Shown one piece after another: positions 26,430 to 45,935 of a stretch of 54,062 nucleotides of DNA. The stretch lies in assembly GCA_964016885.1 (NCBI GenBank), contig CAXHJY010001638.1, positions 1-54,062 on the forward strand. The letters are read 5' to 3'. Origin of the DNA: Eledone cirrhosa (lineage: Eukaryota). Both the position numbers and the translations under genes were made by a program. The notes beneath the pieces are model-generated. The model saw only the letters and a list, made by a program, of their open reading frames with translations, was not told the DNA's origin and did not search any database. How positions within the stretch are numbered: the stretch's first letter is position 1; the number at the start of each line of letters is the position of its first letter.

Positions 26430-29400
26430 GCCCTACGACCGTCAGCGTCTGACCCTGTGATTTGTTAATCGACATGGCGAAACTGAGCCGGAGAGGGAAT
26501 TGCAGCCTTCTGAATGTGAAAGGAATGGAATGAGAGGTATCCTTGGTATGAAGATAGTATCCCCCTTACCACACCCTGTAAGTATTGTTGCCTCAATAAC
26601 ATGAGGCATCGCCTTTTGATGACCAGACGCGTGCCGTTGGAAAGCCTTTTGGGTTCCAAATACCTGATGAGCATGACAGGGGCACCTTTCTTAAGTCGCA
26701 GTAAGTGTGGTGGCAATCCAGGAGGGTCTAGGGAGTTAAGAAATTCTGAAGGGTAATTAACAACTTGTAGACGTGCAGGTTTCCAGGCAAGCACACCATG
26801 AACTCTTCATTGATGTTTCCAACCATGTGGTTTTTCGAAGCCAATATTGTGCGTTCACACAACCACTCTTGATTTGTGTAGTTCTCCTCAAGATTAGGAA
26901 AAACAGATGTCCTTAACTCAGCAATTGACTTAACGCATCTGCAAATCCCTGTGAGGTCCGCTACACCATCTCCGTTGAGTGGGACTTTGCCATCTCCCAA
27001 CGACGAAATGGCAGCAGCAAAACCCGCTGATGTCTCATCACCTTGCAGTTGTGCTTTCATGTTTGTTGTAAGCGTCAGCTTTCTTACATAACGCCAAAGT
27101 GGGGAGGCCTTAAGGCATGCACCAACCTCATCAGCCCGCGTACCTTTTGGGATTACAGGCAGAGTCTGTCGGAAGTCACCAGATAACAGGAAAGTGAGAC
27201 CTCCCATTGGATCGTGACAGTCCCTGATGTCTCCGAGTGACCAGTCTAATGCCTTGAAAGCCGCCTTGTGGGCCATTGTGCATTCGTCGCAAACAATTAG
27301 TAGGCAGCGCTTTAACACCAGTGCTTTTCCGGAAGACTTTCTGATGTTGCACGTGGGTGTCTCAGATGATGCCATGTTGAGAGGAAGACTGAAGGCAGAA
27401 TGGGTCATCCTGCCACCAGGCAGCAAAGTTGCTGCAATGCCGGAAGAATGCGTGTTGCCTCACTGCAGCGAATAAAAGTTTGATTACAAATGTTTTGCCC
27501 GTGCGTCCGGGAAGAATATACCCCCTTCCCGATTACGGATGGAATCAATGACAATGTTGAAGGCTTGTTTCTGATCCATTAGAAGTTTTGGTTCATTTTC
27601 TTCAACATACTTTTTGAAAAGCCGACATCTAAGTTTGGGCGAGACGCCTATATTCGTCTGCGAAATCATCTTTGTTTAAAGAGTAAGGATTACTCAATTC
27701 ACAGACGTGCAAGAGGATAGCAAAAAGTGCCCTTAGACTATGGCATGATTGTGAGATGGTTGCATCCCATTGTGCGTCATCTTCTAAAAGTCCACGCCTC
27801 AAACAGGCTTCCCTGTACGTTCCACAGGCGTATCCATTGACGGTTCACAGATGAGTGAAGCTGGTCGGCCCTCTCACCTCATGAAGCAGAAGTCGCAGGT
27901 AGAAACATTCGTGTTGGGTAGGGTGGACCGTATAAACTCGCCCAAGGCAATTGTCGAATTTGATGCCTGGATGTCCAACCACCTGTTGCCCTACCTTCCT
28001 TCGTAGCCAAGTAAAGTAAGACGGTATTTCAGAATACAGCAGAGTTTGAGCGAAGTCGTCGTGTTGGCAAAGTTTGAAAAAAGCGGTGAGTGTAGTTTCC
28101 TTTGGTGAGATCGCTTGCATCGTTGAAATACACCCGTCGACTGTTTTCAAGGTGAAGCAAGTTGTTTAATGACGGGGTGTCGTTGGTGCAGTGGGAAGCC
28201 AAAAGTCTTCATTGCTGCTAATGTATCGGCCTGCTTGGTAGTCAGATACCTCATCTCTACTATTTTCATGACGAAGACCAAAGACGGCAGCATTCAATCC
28301 CTTGTTTACGTACTTACAAATGTATTTAATTGATTTTACTGAGTTGCAAAATTCGATGTTTATATGGGCGTTGAACGCTTTCAAGAGGAGGGGGCAATAT
28401 GGCACTATCCAGCTGTTGTCTATTTCGCGTTCACCAACTTTTGCTGTGAACCCACCGTCTTCAGGTCTCCTGCGCCTATACAACGGATATCCGTCACCGC
28501 CAGTCTGTGTTTCCTGTAAAAACGGCCTGGGATATCGTTTTGTACACTTTCCATTGTGTATGCACAGGGATTTCATATTGAGTCCATGTCTGCAAGGACC
28601 ATGGACCATGTTTGATGTGACTGTAGAGAAAAGGTCCTTGTCAATCAACGGATCAGGTAGTTTGGAAGAAATGAATTTGTCGATGTAGTTTGAACTGATT
28701 TTTGTAACCAACTAAATCAAGATATGGGCTTGCAGCAGCCCTCGTTTCTGCCATTCAACTGTGTACATGTCGCACCTGACGCCCCAAAACCTGTCCTTTC
28801 TTTAATAAATCCATTAATTTGGATAATTTCAGGTGAAACACTCTTGCTATGAGATCATGCCTGTGTCTTGGTGCTTTACCGTGGAACAGTTCATTTGGGA
28901 TTTCCTGCTGAAATGGTATCCGTCCTCGCTGTTAACAAATAGCAATGGATACAGGGGTGCATCGTAGGACCTGTGTGTCTCATTGATACGCTGTAATGTG
29001 CTGTCTCAGTGCTTTAGAATATCATTCTTGTTGTGCTGTTCACCACAAATAACCGCAGCAATCTCATTACATGTTGGTGCGTTGAACCGACCAGCGTGTT
29101 CTCCAGATGGCCTTTGGTCAGCATATATGACCACACTAAAGTTTGGGTTGGTGGCTGTTCCAAAGCGTACTTGAAACTGCGAACATAGCTGTTTTTGTCA
29201 TGAAGCATTTCTTGAAGTTTTATTATGGTTTCAATGTTAGTTTCGGACGAAATAGAGTTTCGCATCTCTCCCTGCCCCTGATAGTTTCCAACGAAGTATA
29301 ACTAAAGAAATTGGGGATCCTTTTCTGCCAGAGGCTGAATAGACCCAATCAAGTGGTAGATCTGCCCCTGGACCTTGAAAGTTGGCATGAACCCATGTTC

Positions 29401-40207: not shown

Positions 40208-40579
40208 TTTTCCAAGGGGAAAAAAGTTGTCAGAGAACAACACATGGCCGTCATTGTTTACCATGTGCATGAATGGTGGTCTTCTACAGACAACCTTGCC
40301 TGTACTTGTGCCTTAGAGGGTAAGTATCTAGGTGTGAATCCCATGGTCATTCGTGACCGAAGGTGGTCTTTACCATTTATAGATATATAATTATTTAGGT
40401 CAGTTACGACAATGGCACCATACTAGGTATGTACATTTTGTTGATGACCAGCTTCAATAATTGTATTCCAACTTGCCCTACAGACTTGATTTGCTCTACA
40501 CCTTGGATGTTTATTCACCTCTTACTACTACTACCATATATATATATATTATTATGTAGTAAACAACATAAGGCAATTA

Positions 40580-40639
40580 TTCCATTTACCAGTGGTTTCT
40601 TAAAAGCAAAAGATTTTGCTTTCACTCCTCAGAATAAAA
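40580..40639 (-). ncRNA. Type I hammerhead ribozyme, left arm
   Basis: TTTATT-CTGAGGA-GTGAAAGCAAAA-tc-TTTTGCTTTTAA-GAAACCA-c-TGGTA-AATGGA. Confidence 0.7.
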
Positions 40640-40853
40640 AAATCCTGGTCTGTTTATTGAATTTGGATTTTAAAAACAAAAATGCAATCTATATGAAAGT
40701 GAGGCTGGAGAAGGAAGAAGGAAAGGAAAAATAAAATAAAACTACACATGCAAATACACACACAAAAACACAGAAGCATATATACATATACACATATATA
40801 TACATACACATATACACATACATACACTCATACATACACACACACACACATAT

Positions 40854-40896
<43 letters not shown>

Positions 40897-41076
40897 TATA
40901 TATGTGTGTACAAGCATTAACATACACACACACACATATATGTATACATACACACACATATACATACATAGCTATACAATTATACACATACAAATACGTA
41001 CATATCATAAACACGCACAACCAAACAAATACAAACACACACACACACATACATATATATATACACACACATACAT

Positions 41077-41145
<69 letters not shown>

Positions 41146-41487
41146 CATATACATACACATACACACACACATACATGTGTGTGTGTGTAAAACTCAGTCT
41201 TAGATAATTCAAATGAACCTTACATATACATATATATGTAAAGTAATATAGCAACATAAGGCAATTATTCCATTCACCAGTGGTTTCTTAAAAGCAAAAA
41301 ATTTTTCATTCAATCTTTTGCTTTTAAGAAACCACTGGTGAATGGAATAATTGCCTTATGTTGCTTTATTACTTTACTACTATATATATGTATATGTAAG
41401 GTTCATTTGAATTATCTAGGACTGAGTTTTACACACACACACATGTATGTGTGTGTGTATGTGTATGTATATGTATGTATATATATG

Positions 41488-41518
<31 letters not shown>

Positions 41519-41866
41519 ATGTATGTGTGTGTATATATATATGTATGTTTGTATTTGGTTGTGCGTGTTTATATGTACGTATTTGTATGTGTATAATTGT
41601 ATAGCTATGTATGTATATGTGTGTGTATGTATACATATATGTGTGTGTGTGTATGTTAATATTTATGTATATATATATATATGTATGTGTATATAATTAC
41701 ATATACATATGTGTGTGTATATATTGTATACGTGTGCGTGTTTGTGCATGTATGTGTATGTATGTACGAGTGTATATATGTATGATTGTGTGAATGTATG
41801 TATGTATATGTGTGTGTGTATGGCTATGTTTGTGTATGTGTATGCTTGTACACACATATATATATA

Positions 41867-41913
<47 letters not shown>

Positions 41914-42012
41914 ATATGTGTGTGTGTGTGTATGTATGAGTGTATGTATGTGTATATGTGTATGTATGTGTATGTGTATATATATATGTATGTATATATA
42001 TGTGTATATGTA

Positions 42013-42071
<59 letters not shown>

Positions 42072-42215
42072 ATGTATGCTTCTGTGTTTTTGTGTGTGTA
42101 TTTGCATGTGTAGTTTTATTTTATTTTTCCTTTCCTTCTTCCTTCTCCAGCCTCACTTTCATATAGATTGCATTTTTGTTTTTAAAATCCAAATTCAATA
42201 AACAGACCAGGATTT

Positions 42216-42275
42216 TTTCATTCTGAGGATTGAAAGCAAAATCTTTTGCTTTTAAGAAACCACTGGTAAATGGAA
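42216..42275 (+). ncRNA. Type I hammerhead ribozyme, right arm
   Basis: TTTCATT-CTGAGGA-TTGAAAGCAAAA-tc-TTTTGCTTTTAA-GAAACCA-c-TGGTA-AATGGAA. It has a 7-bp helix I, an ~11-bp helix II and GUA at 42266-42268. Confidence 0.78.
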
Positions 42276-42488
42276 TAATTGCCTTATGTTGTTTATTACA
42301 TAATAATAATTAAGCTCTGTTACCTACATAAAGCACTCTTTTTTCCTGGACTTTTCAGACGGAATTACTTCATTCACACACATATATATATATATATATA
42401 GATACCGAGTGAAATCGGGGTGGCAGGGGACCTCATTTAAAAAGTACTCAATGCATTAGTAGAGTGTAAACATTATTTAATAGGACTT

Positions 42489-43129: not shown

Positions 43130-45740
43130 TAAAGAATATCCAAATTTGGAAAAGCACTCAAATTGTGATGTTGAAGGACCCCATAGTCAGTGACAAATTT
43201 AAAAGCTTATTACTTGATGCCTTTGACAATAAGGAAGAGCAATTAGAGATGTACAATATAGAGGAACAGTGGCAATACTTGAAAGTGAACCTGCTGAAAG
43301 CAACAGATGAAATCTGTGGCTGGAGCAGACCTATTGGCAGGAGGAGAGTAACTTGGTGGTGGAACAGTAAGGTGGAAGAGACAATCAAGGCCAAAAAGCA
43401 GGCATGGAAAGTATGGCAGGATGGGGGAAGTAGAGAGCACTATCAAGTGGCCAGGAGAGAAGCTAGGAGACAAGTGTACTTTGCAAAAAGGGAAGCAGAG
43501 GAAAAGAAAGTTCAAGCATGTTCTACAACGTGAGGACCAAAAATGTGAGGTGTTCAGGATTGCTAGACAATGTGTCAAGGAAAACTGTAATATTGTTGGG
43601 GAGAAGTTTGTCCGTAATGATAACGGTGTACTTGCCCTCACTGATACTGATAAGAAGATAGCCTGGAAGTGTCACTACGAGAGACTATTAAATGAGGAGA
43701 ATAAATGGGAAAAAAATAGTCTACCCCAAATCGATCCAATAGATGGACCAGCAATGCAAGTTAAAGGTAGTATAATAAGTAAGGCAATCAAAGATATGAA
43801 GACAGGCAAAGCAGCTGGCCTTTCGTAGATAGTTGCTGAGATGTTGAAGGCATCTGGTATGGTGGACACACTATGATCACCCATATAGTTAATCAAGTAA
43901 TACAGAATGGGGTCATACCGAAAGACTGGCATAGCAGCATCATCATTAACTGCTACAAGGGTAAAGGGGATGCTCTAGATAGAGGAAACTATAGAGGCAT
44001 TAAGTTAGTTGACCAGGTCATGAAGGTCACAGAAAGAGTTATAGCGCAACTAATCAGAGAGCGAATTGATCTAGATGAAATGCAGTTTGGGTTTGTGTCA
44101 GGTAAAAGTACTACAGACGCTCTTTTCCTTGTACGACAACTACAAGAGAAGTACCTAGCTAAAAGTAAATCCCTTTACTTAGCTTTTGTAGACCTGGAGA
44201 AAGCCTTTGACAGAGTCCCCCGCTCCATTATCTGGTGGGCTCTTAGAAAACTAGGTGTAGATGAATGGCTTGTGAGAGCTATACAAGCTATGTATAATGA
44301 AACAGTCAGTAAAGTTAGAATTAACAATGAATATTGTGAAGAATTTAGTGTAAAAGTTGGCGTTCATCAAGGCTCTGTCCTTAGCTCCCTCCTATTCTAG
44401 ACCGGCTGCCCATGGGAACTCCTATATGCAGATGATCTAATGTTCATAGCTGAATCAATGGCTGAACTAGAGAAGAAATTCCAAACATGAAAGCATGGCC
44501 TAGAATCAAAAGGCTTTAAAGTTAACTTGTCTAAGACTAAAGTTCTAGTTTGTAGAAAGGAAAATAGGGCACAGGTGCCCTCTGGGAAATGGCCATGCTC
44601 AGTGTGTAGGAAAGGAGTAGGCAGAAATTCCATTTTATGTCCCAAATGCAAAGTATGAGTACATAAAGATGTAGTGGGATCACAGGTAAACTATCTAAGA
44701 ACGTAGACTTTATATGTGGCCAATGCTCAGGTGCAATAAGTAGCAAGTGTCCAGAGGATACTAGCTCCTTCTATTGCCCAGATGGGTGACAAAATCAGCA
44801 GTGGTGGAGGGTGTTCTGAAAGTACAGTAGCCAGAGTCAGAACGGGATGGAAAAAGTTCAGAGAGCTTATACCGTTATTGGCCACAAAAGGTTTCTCTCT
44901 AAAAGTGAAAGGCAGTTGTATGATGCCTGTATACGAACAGCAATGCTACATGGCAGTGAGACATGGGCATTACGTGCAGAGGACCTGCGCAGACTGGAAA
45001 GGAACGAAGCATGCATGCTCCGTTGGATGTGTAATAGTAATATACGTGAACGGCAAAGCATAAATGAACTAAGTGAGAAATTAGGAATAAGAGGGATCAG
45101 ATGCTGTTTACTTGAGAGAAGACTACGTTGGTATGGTCATGTGGTGCGCATTAAAGATGACAGCTGCATAAAAAAGTGCAGGGTGATCAAAATTGATGTT
45201 AGTTACAGAGTAGGTAGACCCAGAAAAACCTGGGACGATCTGATAAATTCCGACCTTACACACTTGCACCTCTCTAAGACAATGTCACTGGACGGAGATC
45301 TTTGGTGCTACGCAGTAATACAGAAGACCCACCTTGCCTATGTACAAAGCGAAACCTCTTAAACAAATATACACCCCAATCCACTACCCCTACCCTATCC
45401 TCCCACTCCCACCAACACCACCCTCTCTCTGTAAAGTTGGTACCACAATATGCAGTCCAAATAAATGAGATAATGGAGTCGAGATCGTGTAGGTGTCATG
45501 ACAAAAAAACACACAGTGCATGCTGTAGTGTGGCCGTGTAGGTAACACGGTAAAAAGTTCCCAGTTCCACACTGTAAATGTGGTTGGTGTTAGGAAGGGC
45601 ATCCAGCCGTAGAAAACCAGATAGTCCTTTATAAGCGAGACACGGTCACCCGACCAACCTTGCCTCAAGTGGGACAACTCCCGTCTAACCCATGCTAGCG
45701 TGGAAGATGGACGTTAAACGATAATGACGATGATGATGAT
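43130..45740 (+). mobile_element. RTE-clade LINE, 5'-truncated and disrupted
   Basis: VTWWWNS, QFGF, DLEKAFD, YADD and LRWYGH are spread across several frames, with stops and deletions and a (GAT)n tail. Confidence 0.95.
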
Positions 45741-45935
45741 ATTGCATTAGCTATAGTGTCATTTAGATACAATTTTTTCGTTAGCCATCTGTTTCAGATC
45801 TTTCACTGATACCAGACTTAAGTTCGACAGTCTATATACATATATATACATGAATGGACCTGTTTTTTGCCCTAAAAATTATTTTTTATGTGTCCACCAC
45901 TGCTCGTCTCCCCAATCTTTCTATTTCCTTTTCTA

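Follow-up and report, generated by a model that had tools for sequence, protein, structure and literature searches.

What is the origin of a palindrome of about 1.75 kb that has a hammerhead ribozyme fold at each of its outer ends but no protein-coding gene of its own? Such a structure is found in a 54,062-nt contig from the octopod Eledone cirrhosa (the whole of this stretch of DNA is hereinafter the window), and the preliminary description, made from the sequence alone, took it for a candidate new family of retrozymes, that is, non-autonomous retroelements. The comparison of the locus with the rest of the genome leads to a different answer. The palindrome is, very probably, a head-to-head pair of 5'-truncated copies of the 3' untranslated region (UTR) of a coding Penelope-like element (PLE) of the Hydra clade, located in a (TA)n tract and likely produced in one insertion, with the RNA copied from both ends of the enzyme-cut tract.

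The palindrome and its surroundings

Two inverted arms that meet at 41312-41317 indeed make up the palindrome, as originally seen, and align with only 8 mismatches over 706 columns. The left arm lacks a 183-nt block of the right arm (41659-41841) and further differs by gaps of 60 and 28 nt and by changes in the TA tracts; thus, the difference between the arms, previously attributed mostly to microsatellite length, is mostly this one block. The left arm ends at about 40550, abutting (TA)7, whereas the right arm does not stop at 42304, as initially proposed, but reaches 42374, with (CA)4 next and then (TA)9. The additional 3' sequence of the right arm, which extends about 70 nt beyond the left one, is a long tail of about 65-70 nt that is conserved in the family. 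The features of the locus are as follows.

40536-40549: (TA)7 target microsatellite, left side, assigned from the sequence and from the family ends, which abut (TA)n
40550-40579, minus strand: 3' end of the left arm, of the short type (about 35 nt beyond the cut site of the hammerhead)
40580-40639, minus strand: terminal hammerhead H1, left copy; A17 at 40587
40640-40780, minus strand: non-repetitive UTR segment U, left copy
40781-41247, minus strand: microsatellite-rich UTR body and segment B, left copy, without the 183-nt block
41248-41317, minus strand: 5'-truncated internal hammerhead H2 and following sequence, left arm; G17 at 41275
41312-41317: head-to-head junction, a few-base overlap of the two 5'-truncated arms, within helix II of H2
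41316-41366, plus strand: 3' half of H2 and following sequence, right arm; G17 at 41340
41367-41440, plus strand: segment B, present in the family only after H2
41441-42074, plus strand: (TG)/(TA)/(TATG) UTR body, with the order of modules kept among copies; 41659-41841 absent from the left arm
42075-42215, plus strand: non-repetitive UTR segment U; AATAAA at 42197
42216-42275, plus strand: terminal type I hammerhead H1; predicted cut after A42268; near-palindromic helix III
42276-42374, plus strand: long 3' end, consisting of the short-end stretch and then the tail of about 65-70 nt (42310-42374)
42375-42400: (CA)4, absent from the template at that place, then the (TA)9 target microsatellite

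No copy of the family open reading frame (ORF) was found in the window by tblastn, in agreement with the initial statement that the locus has no real ORF. The search for an empty site of the locus was negative as well, the left flank giving only an unrelated repeat. By contrast, the segment 42075-42304 yielded 1,623 first-look candidates in the genome, and all 40 that were scored are 98-100% identical; the AATAAA signal is present in this segment, as reported, but the segment, described as unique, is a high-copy repeat. The dispersed copies that had been anticipated are there, whereas tandem monomers were not found. A general pattern for this type of hammerhead, which covers several sister families, matches the genome 8,614 times, compared to a single match for the reversed-pattern control.

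The window holds further hammerhead-like cores at 1706 (+), 35377 (-) and 45940 (+), with a short, G-C-closed helix II, that belong to other families. AP-endonuclease/reverse transcriptase (RT) LINE-like copies in both orientations and a helicase-like fragment, labelled by eye from the translations, are located at 3080-10497, 43216-45742 and 26731-27459.

Two classes of hammerheads

The folds at 42216-42275 (+) and, in the mirror copy, at 40580-40639 (-) are complete type I hammerheads, as originally reported, with the defining core (CUGANGA / GAAA / NUH) and three helices. In the plus-strand copy, these elements are a helix I of 7 bp, a CUGAGGA core, a helix II of 11 bp, GAAA, a helix III of 3 bp, and GUA; the left copy, in which A17 lies at 40587, has two private changes, C to U in helix I and U to G at the first base of helix II. 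Helix II is unusually long, as had been noticed: 10-11 bp across the two copies, compared to 7-8 bp for the PLE hammerheads in PMC4209133. Among 25 distinct sequences, the core is invariant save N7, 95% of the helix cells are paired, and five pairs, some of them in helix II, have changed on both sides; this covariation among copies, expected under the preliminary description, gave a score that none of 500 shuffles reached, and slid controls were 37-57% paired. Most of the changes in helix II come from one sister lineage and so represent few events. H1 lacks the G10.1-C11.1 pair that is typical of canonical and PLE hammerheads, and has U-A or an N.A mismatch at the first position of helix II, which is paired in 16 and unpaired in 9 of the 25 sequences.

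In free folding, the hammerhead is not the minimum structure of H1 (z about -1) but lies 4.8 kcal/mol above it (-11.9 versus -16.7), and an alternative predicted hairpin masks the 5' strand of helix I together with the CUG. Unconstrained dimer folding did not give a clean double hammerhead, and an Rfam scan of the locus returned no hammerhead family up to E = 1, only microRNA-type hairpin matches below the gathering scores. The PLE hammerheads described in PMC4209133 combine a long helix II and a small palindromic helix III with low activity, and likely act as dimers. We predict that H1 is a weak ribozyme that would require a dimer or the help of a protein.

The inner ends of the arms are different. 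The half-hammerheads at these positions have G17, at 41340 (+) and 41275 (-), that is, GUG instead of GUA, and the CUGANGA core is absent from them on both strands, the left-arm piece beginning just inside the core with the CUG missing. Therefore, the values of 688 and 928 nt that had been given for the spacing of cleavage sites in the two arms are right as figures but are not distances between two standard cleavage sites. The inner halves are truncated pieces of a second, internal hammerhead, H2, with G at the cleavage position, and the family accordingly holds two classes, the terminal H1 with A17 and the internal H2 with G17. Genome-wide, the H2-type core (CUGAAGA) has 196 matches with G17 and 26 without, and 24 of the latter are H1 copies, recognizable by an H1-type helix II, with a G-to-A change at N7. 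The H1-type core has 2,560 matches with A, C or U at position 17 and 54 with G; nearly all of those listed among the 54 have an inner-type helix II. Given that G17 strongly impairs minimal hammerheads, whereas tertiary-stabilised ones still cleave (PMC3884650), H2 is predicted to be largely silenced, weak rather than proven dead. Such silencing would keep the ORF attached to the priming sites.

Several observations pertain to the history of these modules. Older-looking forms of H2 in L201-L205 have G17 yet retain CUGAGGA and an intact helix II, suggesting that G17 arose first, with the other decay coming later. We considered the capture of the end of a sister family as the source of H2 and segment B; however, every segment B in the listed contexts comes after an H2-type hammerhead, which makes a duplication within the lineage the likelier origin. 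Locus L034 (3646-3910; also L029) contains a local duplication of 143 bp that encompasses the 3' half of H2 and segment B. An AATAAA-like hexamer about 25 nt before the core (42197 in the window; L107-L129) is kept in sister families. A GT splice-donor-like hexamer coincides with the H1 cut site (42266-42271 in the window; L048:748-850), and an AG acceptor-like site lies just beyond the long end point (L048:748-850); judging from these motifs, an intron in the 5' leader that overlaps the H1 ribozyme is possible.

The coding element behind the arms

Elsewhere in the genome, the sequence of the arms lies downstream of an ORF of 709-711 amino acids that encodes an RT and a GIY-YIG nuclease, so the suspected link to PLEs was well founded. 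The order in the parent unit is tail, leader, ORF of about 710 aa, microsatellite, H2 (G17), microsatellite, segment U and H1 (A17). In L048, it can be followed from one H1 through the tail, leader, start codon, an interrupted RT and nuclease ORF, about 200 nt, a microsatellite, H2, segment B, the body and segment U to the next H1; the succession H1, tail, leader, ORF, H2, body, H1 is seen in L081-L095 as well, and ORF, H2, B, body, U, H1 is repeated across L081-L099. The ORF is uninterrupted in seven fetched copies (L086-L089 and L091-L093). In full-length copies, the long-end tail is continuous with the leader of the next ORF and, beyond it, with the start codon. A search with the nuclease-domain region of L048 gave matches that are 95-100% identical in all 150 cases scored.

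Measured from cut to cut, four copies are 4,190, 4,253, 4,605 and 4,678 nt long (4.2-4.7 kb), and in three copies the UTR from the stop codon to H1 spans 1.83-2.08 kb, of which 57-59% consists of alternating pyrimidine-purine runs; in this respect, the notion of a microsatellite cargo holds. The end of an ORF lies at most 1.5 kb upstream in 20 of the 30 position-ordered H2 sites, two more have only the post-ORF segment and eight have neither. H2 and H1 are 0.7-1.8 kb apart in most copies (73 spacings). Given an unrelated-looking insertion inside the UTR microsatellite of L048 (3700-5320) and H2-H1 spacings of up to 7.3 kb in some copies, the UTR collects further insertions.

The ORF contains RWK at position 37, DKT at 114, YRDD at 346 and CxCX5C at 555, followed by a nuclease with a GIY-YIG-like VVY..YVG at 574, no cysteine in between, CxxC at 658 and CxH at 689; a CX2-5CxxC (CCHH) motif is missing, and the only GxKF-like match, at 503, is not N-terminal. 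Each of four motifs is common to 118-120 of the 120 listed homologues. Pfam gave no match on the ORF itself but detected GIY-YIG in a homologue (P0002), so the domain calls rest on motifs and homologues. For the Hydra clade, PMC8557442 describes RWK, a DKG to DKT change, a CxCX5C linker, the absence of CCHH, and CxxC and CxH in the nuclease. On the basis of the motifs, and of a comparison by eye with the alignment and supplement references of that paper, we would place the element in the Hydra clade, and both arms of the palindrome then appear to be the 3' UTR of an autonomous PLE of this clade. The parent family is apparently undescribed, the literature search having returned only Hydra-1_Obim, a relative that is set apart by eye; the designation of a new family is provisional.

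Long and short ends come in pairs

In copies of the family, the H1 cut is followed by either about 35 nt (short end) or about 105 nt (long end) before (TA)n is reached; in 40 regions, we identified 32 short ends, 22 long ends and 2 others. The number of CA units between the long tail and (TA)n varies from none to about 7 (42375-42382 in the window; long ends in L206-L259), and short ends differ in how many TAA units they have; these variable units look like stuttering at the start of reverse transcription.

The inverted 5' structure invoked from the start is a recurrent one. Among the first 100 H1 matches listed, on the largest contig, a hand count gave 24 outward-facing pairs within 10 kb, which account for 48 of the matches, along with 2 direct pairs and 1 convergent pair. 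The palindrome is the normal footprint of this family. Moreover, the ends of a pair are not combined freely: one long and one short end were observed in all 12 simple inverted pairs initially analysed (11 of them independent, as two share flanks) and in all 14 pairs of a held-out set (p = 6e-5 at even odds; one long tail among these breaks off early). Among loci chosen by other criteria, 18 of 21 pairs, four of which repeat earlier ones, show the same combination; the three that do not have two long ends (L081 and, separately, L084) or two short ends (L087). These exceptions, and a further pair with two long ends in L094-L095, are all around full-length copies. In L207 (4832-5073), two long ends flank a single (TA)n tract, a tail-to-tail arrangement that is rare. 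The presence of a tail on one of two inverted ends has been described before (PMC8557442, legend of Fig. 2; PMC3846280), and the optional tail has been explained in vitro by two internal start sites (PMC11167929). The pairing of long and short ends suggests that, within a single insertion, the enzyme likely begins copying at two fixed points.

In 10 pairs, the two arms come from the same sub-lineage, differing by 0-6 edits over about 150 nt, compared to medians of 6-12 to other loci; this similarity is no proof of a single template RNA because 2-24% of other arms are equally close. Of the 51 loci examined, 31 allowed the inner junction to be placed; two assignments to position 1 (L247, L130) are artefacts of the mapping, in which H1 and H2 positions can be swapped. 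The 5' ends are scattered from unit position ~105 to ~4120, in the leader, in the ORF and up to the hammerhead itself, many with overlaps of 1-8 nt, and none of the placed junctions has an arm that starts at the cut site. In many pairs, as in the palindrome of the window, both arms end at nearly the same unit position.

Alternative explanations

Could the locus nevertheless be a non-autonomous retrozyme, in which the stretch from H2 to H1 is excised at both hammerheads, circularised and reinserted by PLE enzymes? There are two same-direction hammerhead folds 0.7-1.8 kb apart in most copies (73 spacings), H2 retains the core and helix I, hammerheads with G17 may still cleave (PMC3884650), and most H1 copies have no ORF nearby, all of which is compatible with such an origin. 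However, retrozymes are tandems of units of 170-400 nt, each with a working hammerhead (PMC7229834; 10.64898/2026.07.22.740005), so in a retrozyme unit segment B is expected after, and segment U before, every hammerhead. A GUA hammerhead followed by the monomer head, segment B, occurs 0 times genome-wide, versus 2,566 with the normal tail, which speaks against the proposed release of a circularising monomer by two hammerheads; segment U is upstream in sense in none of the 30 position-ordered H2 sites, and the four direct H1-H1 neighbours identified in 55 regions are not repeats of a monomer. H2 is a G17 hammerhead in 196 matches against 26, the copies end past the cut rather than at it, and a unit of 688-928 nt, with most H2-H1 spacings at 0.9-1.8 kb, exceeds the 170-400 nt of animal retrozymes (PMC7229834). 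Nor is this a non-coding family: the same sequence is the UTR of ORF-bearing copies, with an ORF end upstream of 20 of the 30 H2 sites. Thus, we have to abandon the retrozyme family, the central proposal of the preliminary description, as very improbable. One arrangement, in L247 (705-1160), is retrozyme-sized, its cut sites being 330 nt apart: a half-hammerhead is followed by the tail, the leader and the first codons, and these by segment U and H1. It adds a fifth direct H1-H1 neighbour and was rejected as a retrozyme family, being a single-copy internal-deletion derivative.

The same parent element could also give rise to the palindrome by folding back, if the cDNA snapped back at the helix II hairpin or an antisense template primed itself (PMC3846280). 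The junction within the hairpin and the many pairs with near-equal arm ends, such as 4098/4098, 1791/1801 and 2218/2209, are what such a mechanism predicts. The difficulty is that a copy cannot exceed its template at one end while being shorter at the other, and the short-tailed arm reaches further 5' in L044, L259, L031, L232 and L236 (the long-tailed one does in L099, L245 and L256); simple fold-back therefore fits the symmetric pairs but not these, and we consider it unlikely as the explanation. Hardly credible at all is an artefact of assembly or long-read fold-back, a concern insofar as the window is the whole of a small, unplaced 54-kb contig and the flank of the palindrome is represented only once in the assembly. 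Against it, 8 substitutions and several indels, the 183-nt one among them, separate the arms, the two arms do not end alike, and 24 pairs of this form are present on the largest contig.

A scenario for the insertion

The paired insertion of two truncated UTR copies, our preferred reading, can be accommodated by a simple chain of events. The GIY-YIG nuclease would nick both strands of the target, and each 3' end would prime reverse transcription on uncleaved read-through RNA, one at each start point. At this locus, both cDNAs would have halted inside helix II of H2 and been joined via a few shared bases (microhomology), after which the left arm would have lost 183 nt between repeats. A single template RNA for both arms is plausible. 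In vitro, both strands are cut and extended by a PLE protein, a predicted dimer, that uses two internal start sites and takes unprocessed RNA as the template (PMC11167929); the same experiments, as described there, show no strand preference of the start sites, which counts against coupled priming.

An intriguing extension of this scenario is a two-headed PLE enzyme that holds one RNA and in which each DNA end is obliged to use a different start point, combined with a UTR that is a microsatellite-spreading cassette between a live and a G17-silenced hammerhead and, as such, a precursor of a retrozyme that resides in an autonomous element of which intact copies exist. We offer this composite proposal tentatively, with less than even confidence. 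If it is true, the family is one substitution away from a monomer-releasing retrozyme.

Implications

The origin of inverted, one-tailed PLE insertions is named as an open problem in PMC8557442. With thousands of near-identical ends and natural uninterrupted ORFs, this young family offers the material for a genome-wide count of the long/short rule and for its test in vitro. Each long copy adds about 1 kb of TA/TG repeats to the TA tract that receives it, and microsatellites can in this way expand directly in the genome. For annotation, caution is due, as the ORF-less hammerhead palindromes here are mostly tail ends of PLEs, not retrozymes.

Relation to known elements

The closest match is with the Hydra-clade PLEs as described by Craig et al. 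(2021, PMC8557442), with which the family shares a single ORF of about 710 aa with a C-terminal nuclease, RWK, DKT and CxCX5C, the lack of the nuclease cysteine pair, a hammerhead in the pLTR, (TA)n targets, partial tandems, inverted 5'-truncated copies and a tail at one end. The unit of 4.2-4.7 kb departs from the 'generally <3 kb' given for that clade on account of the long UTR; this UTR, at 1.8-2.1 kb, with 57-59% alternating repeats and a second, G17 hammerhead, differs from those of the Hydra-clade PLEs, and the tail is about 70 nt rather than 30-40 bp (PMC8557442). Hydra-1_Obim (Hydra-1_oBim in File S2 of PMC8557442), of 2,507 bp and with a (TA)n target, has the identical tiny helix III, ACCA-N-UGGU, whereas helix II of our family is different in sequence and longer; by eye, the two appear to be related but different families.

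PAc, the Poseidon element of Anolis (Frangieh et al. 2024, PMC11167929), likewise has two fixed 3' ends that yield an optional tail, AT-rich targets, a hammerhead upstream of the start points and ends that are not at the ribozyme cut; it differs in belonging to another clade and in that its start points are inside the ORF, not in the leader, and that paper reports no pairing of start sites between strands. The Penelope elements of Adineta vaga (PMC3846280) share with our family the head-to-head inverted pLTRs, junction palindromes, microhomology, the optional tail on one inverted pLTR and, in Pen1, a long spacer before the 3' pLTR; they are low-copy, the spacer is captured unique DNA instead of a conserved microsatellite body, and the paper favours antisense self-priming. 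The non-LTR retrozymes of animals (Cervera and de la Pena 2020, PMC7229834; Li et al. 2026, 10.64898/2026.07.22.740005) resemble the locus in the window in the type I hammerhead, low GC, non-coding character and mobility via PLE enzymes, whereas the sequence analysed here has no tandem monomers and no second standard cut site, is much longer and is part of a coding element. Seen against these systems, the locus is a real PLE insertion that is ordinary in kind but unusual in its long, microsatellite-rich UTR, in having a second hammerhead (with G17) and in how strictly the ends are paired; it is this strictness of long/short pairing that the family adds to the known tails of PLEs.
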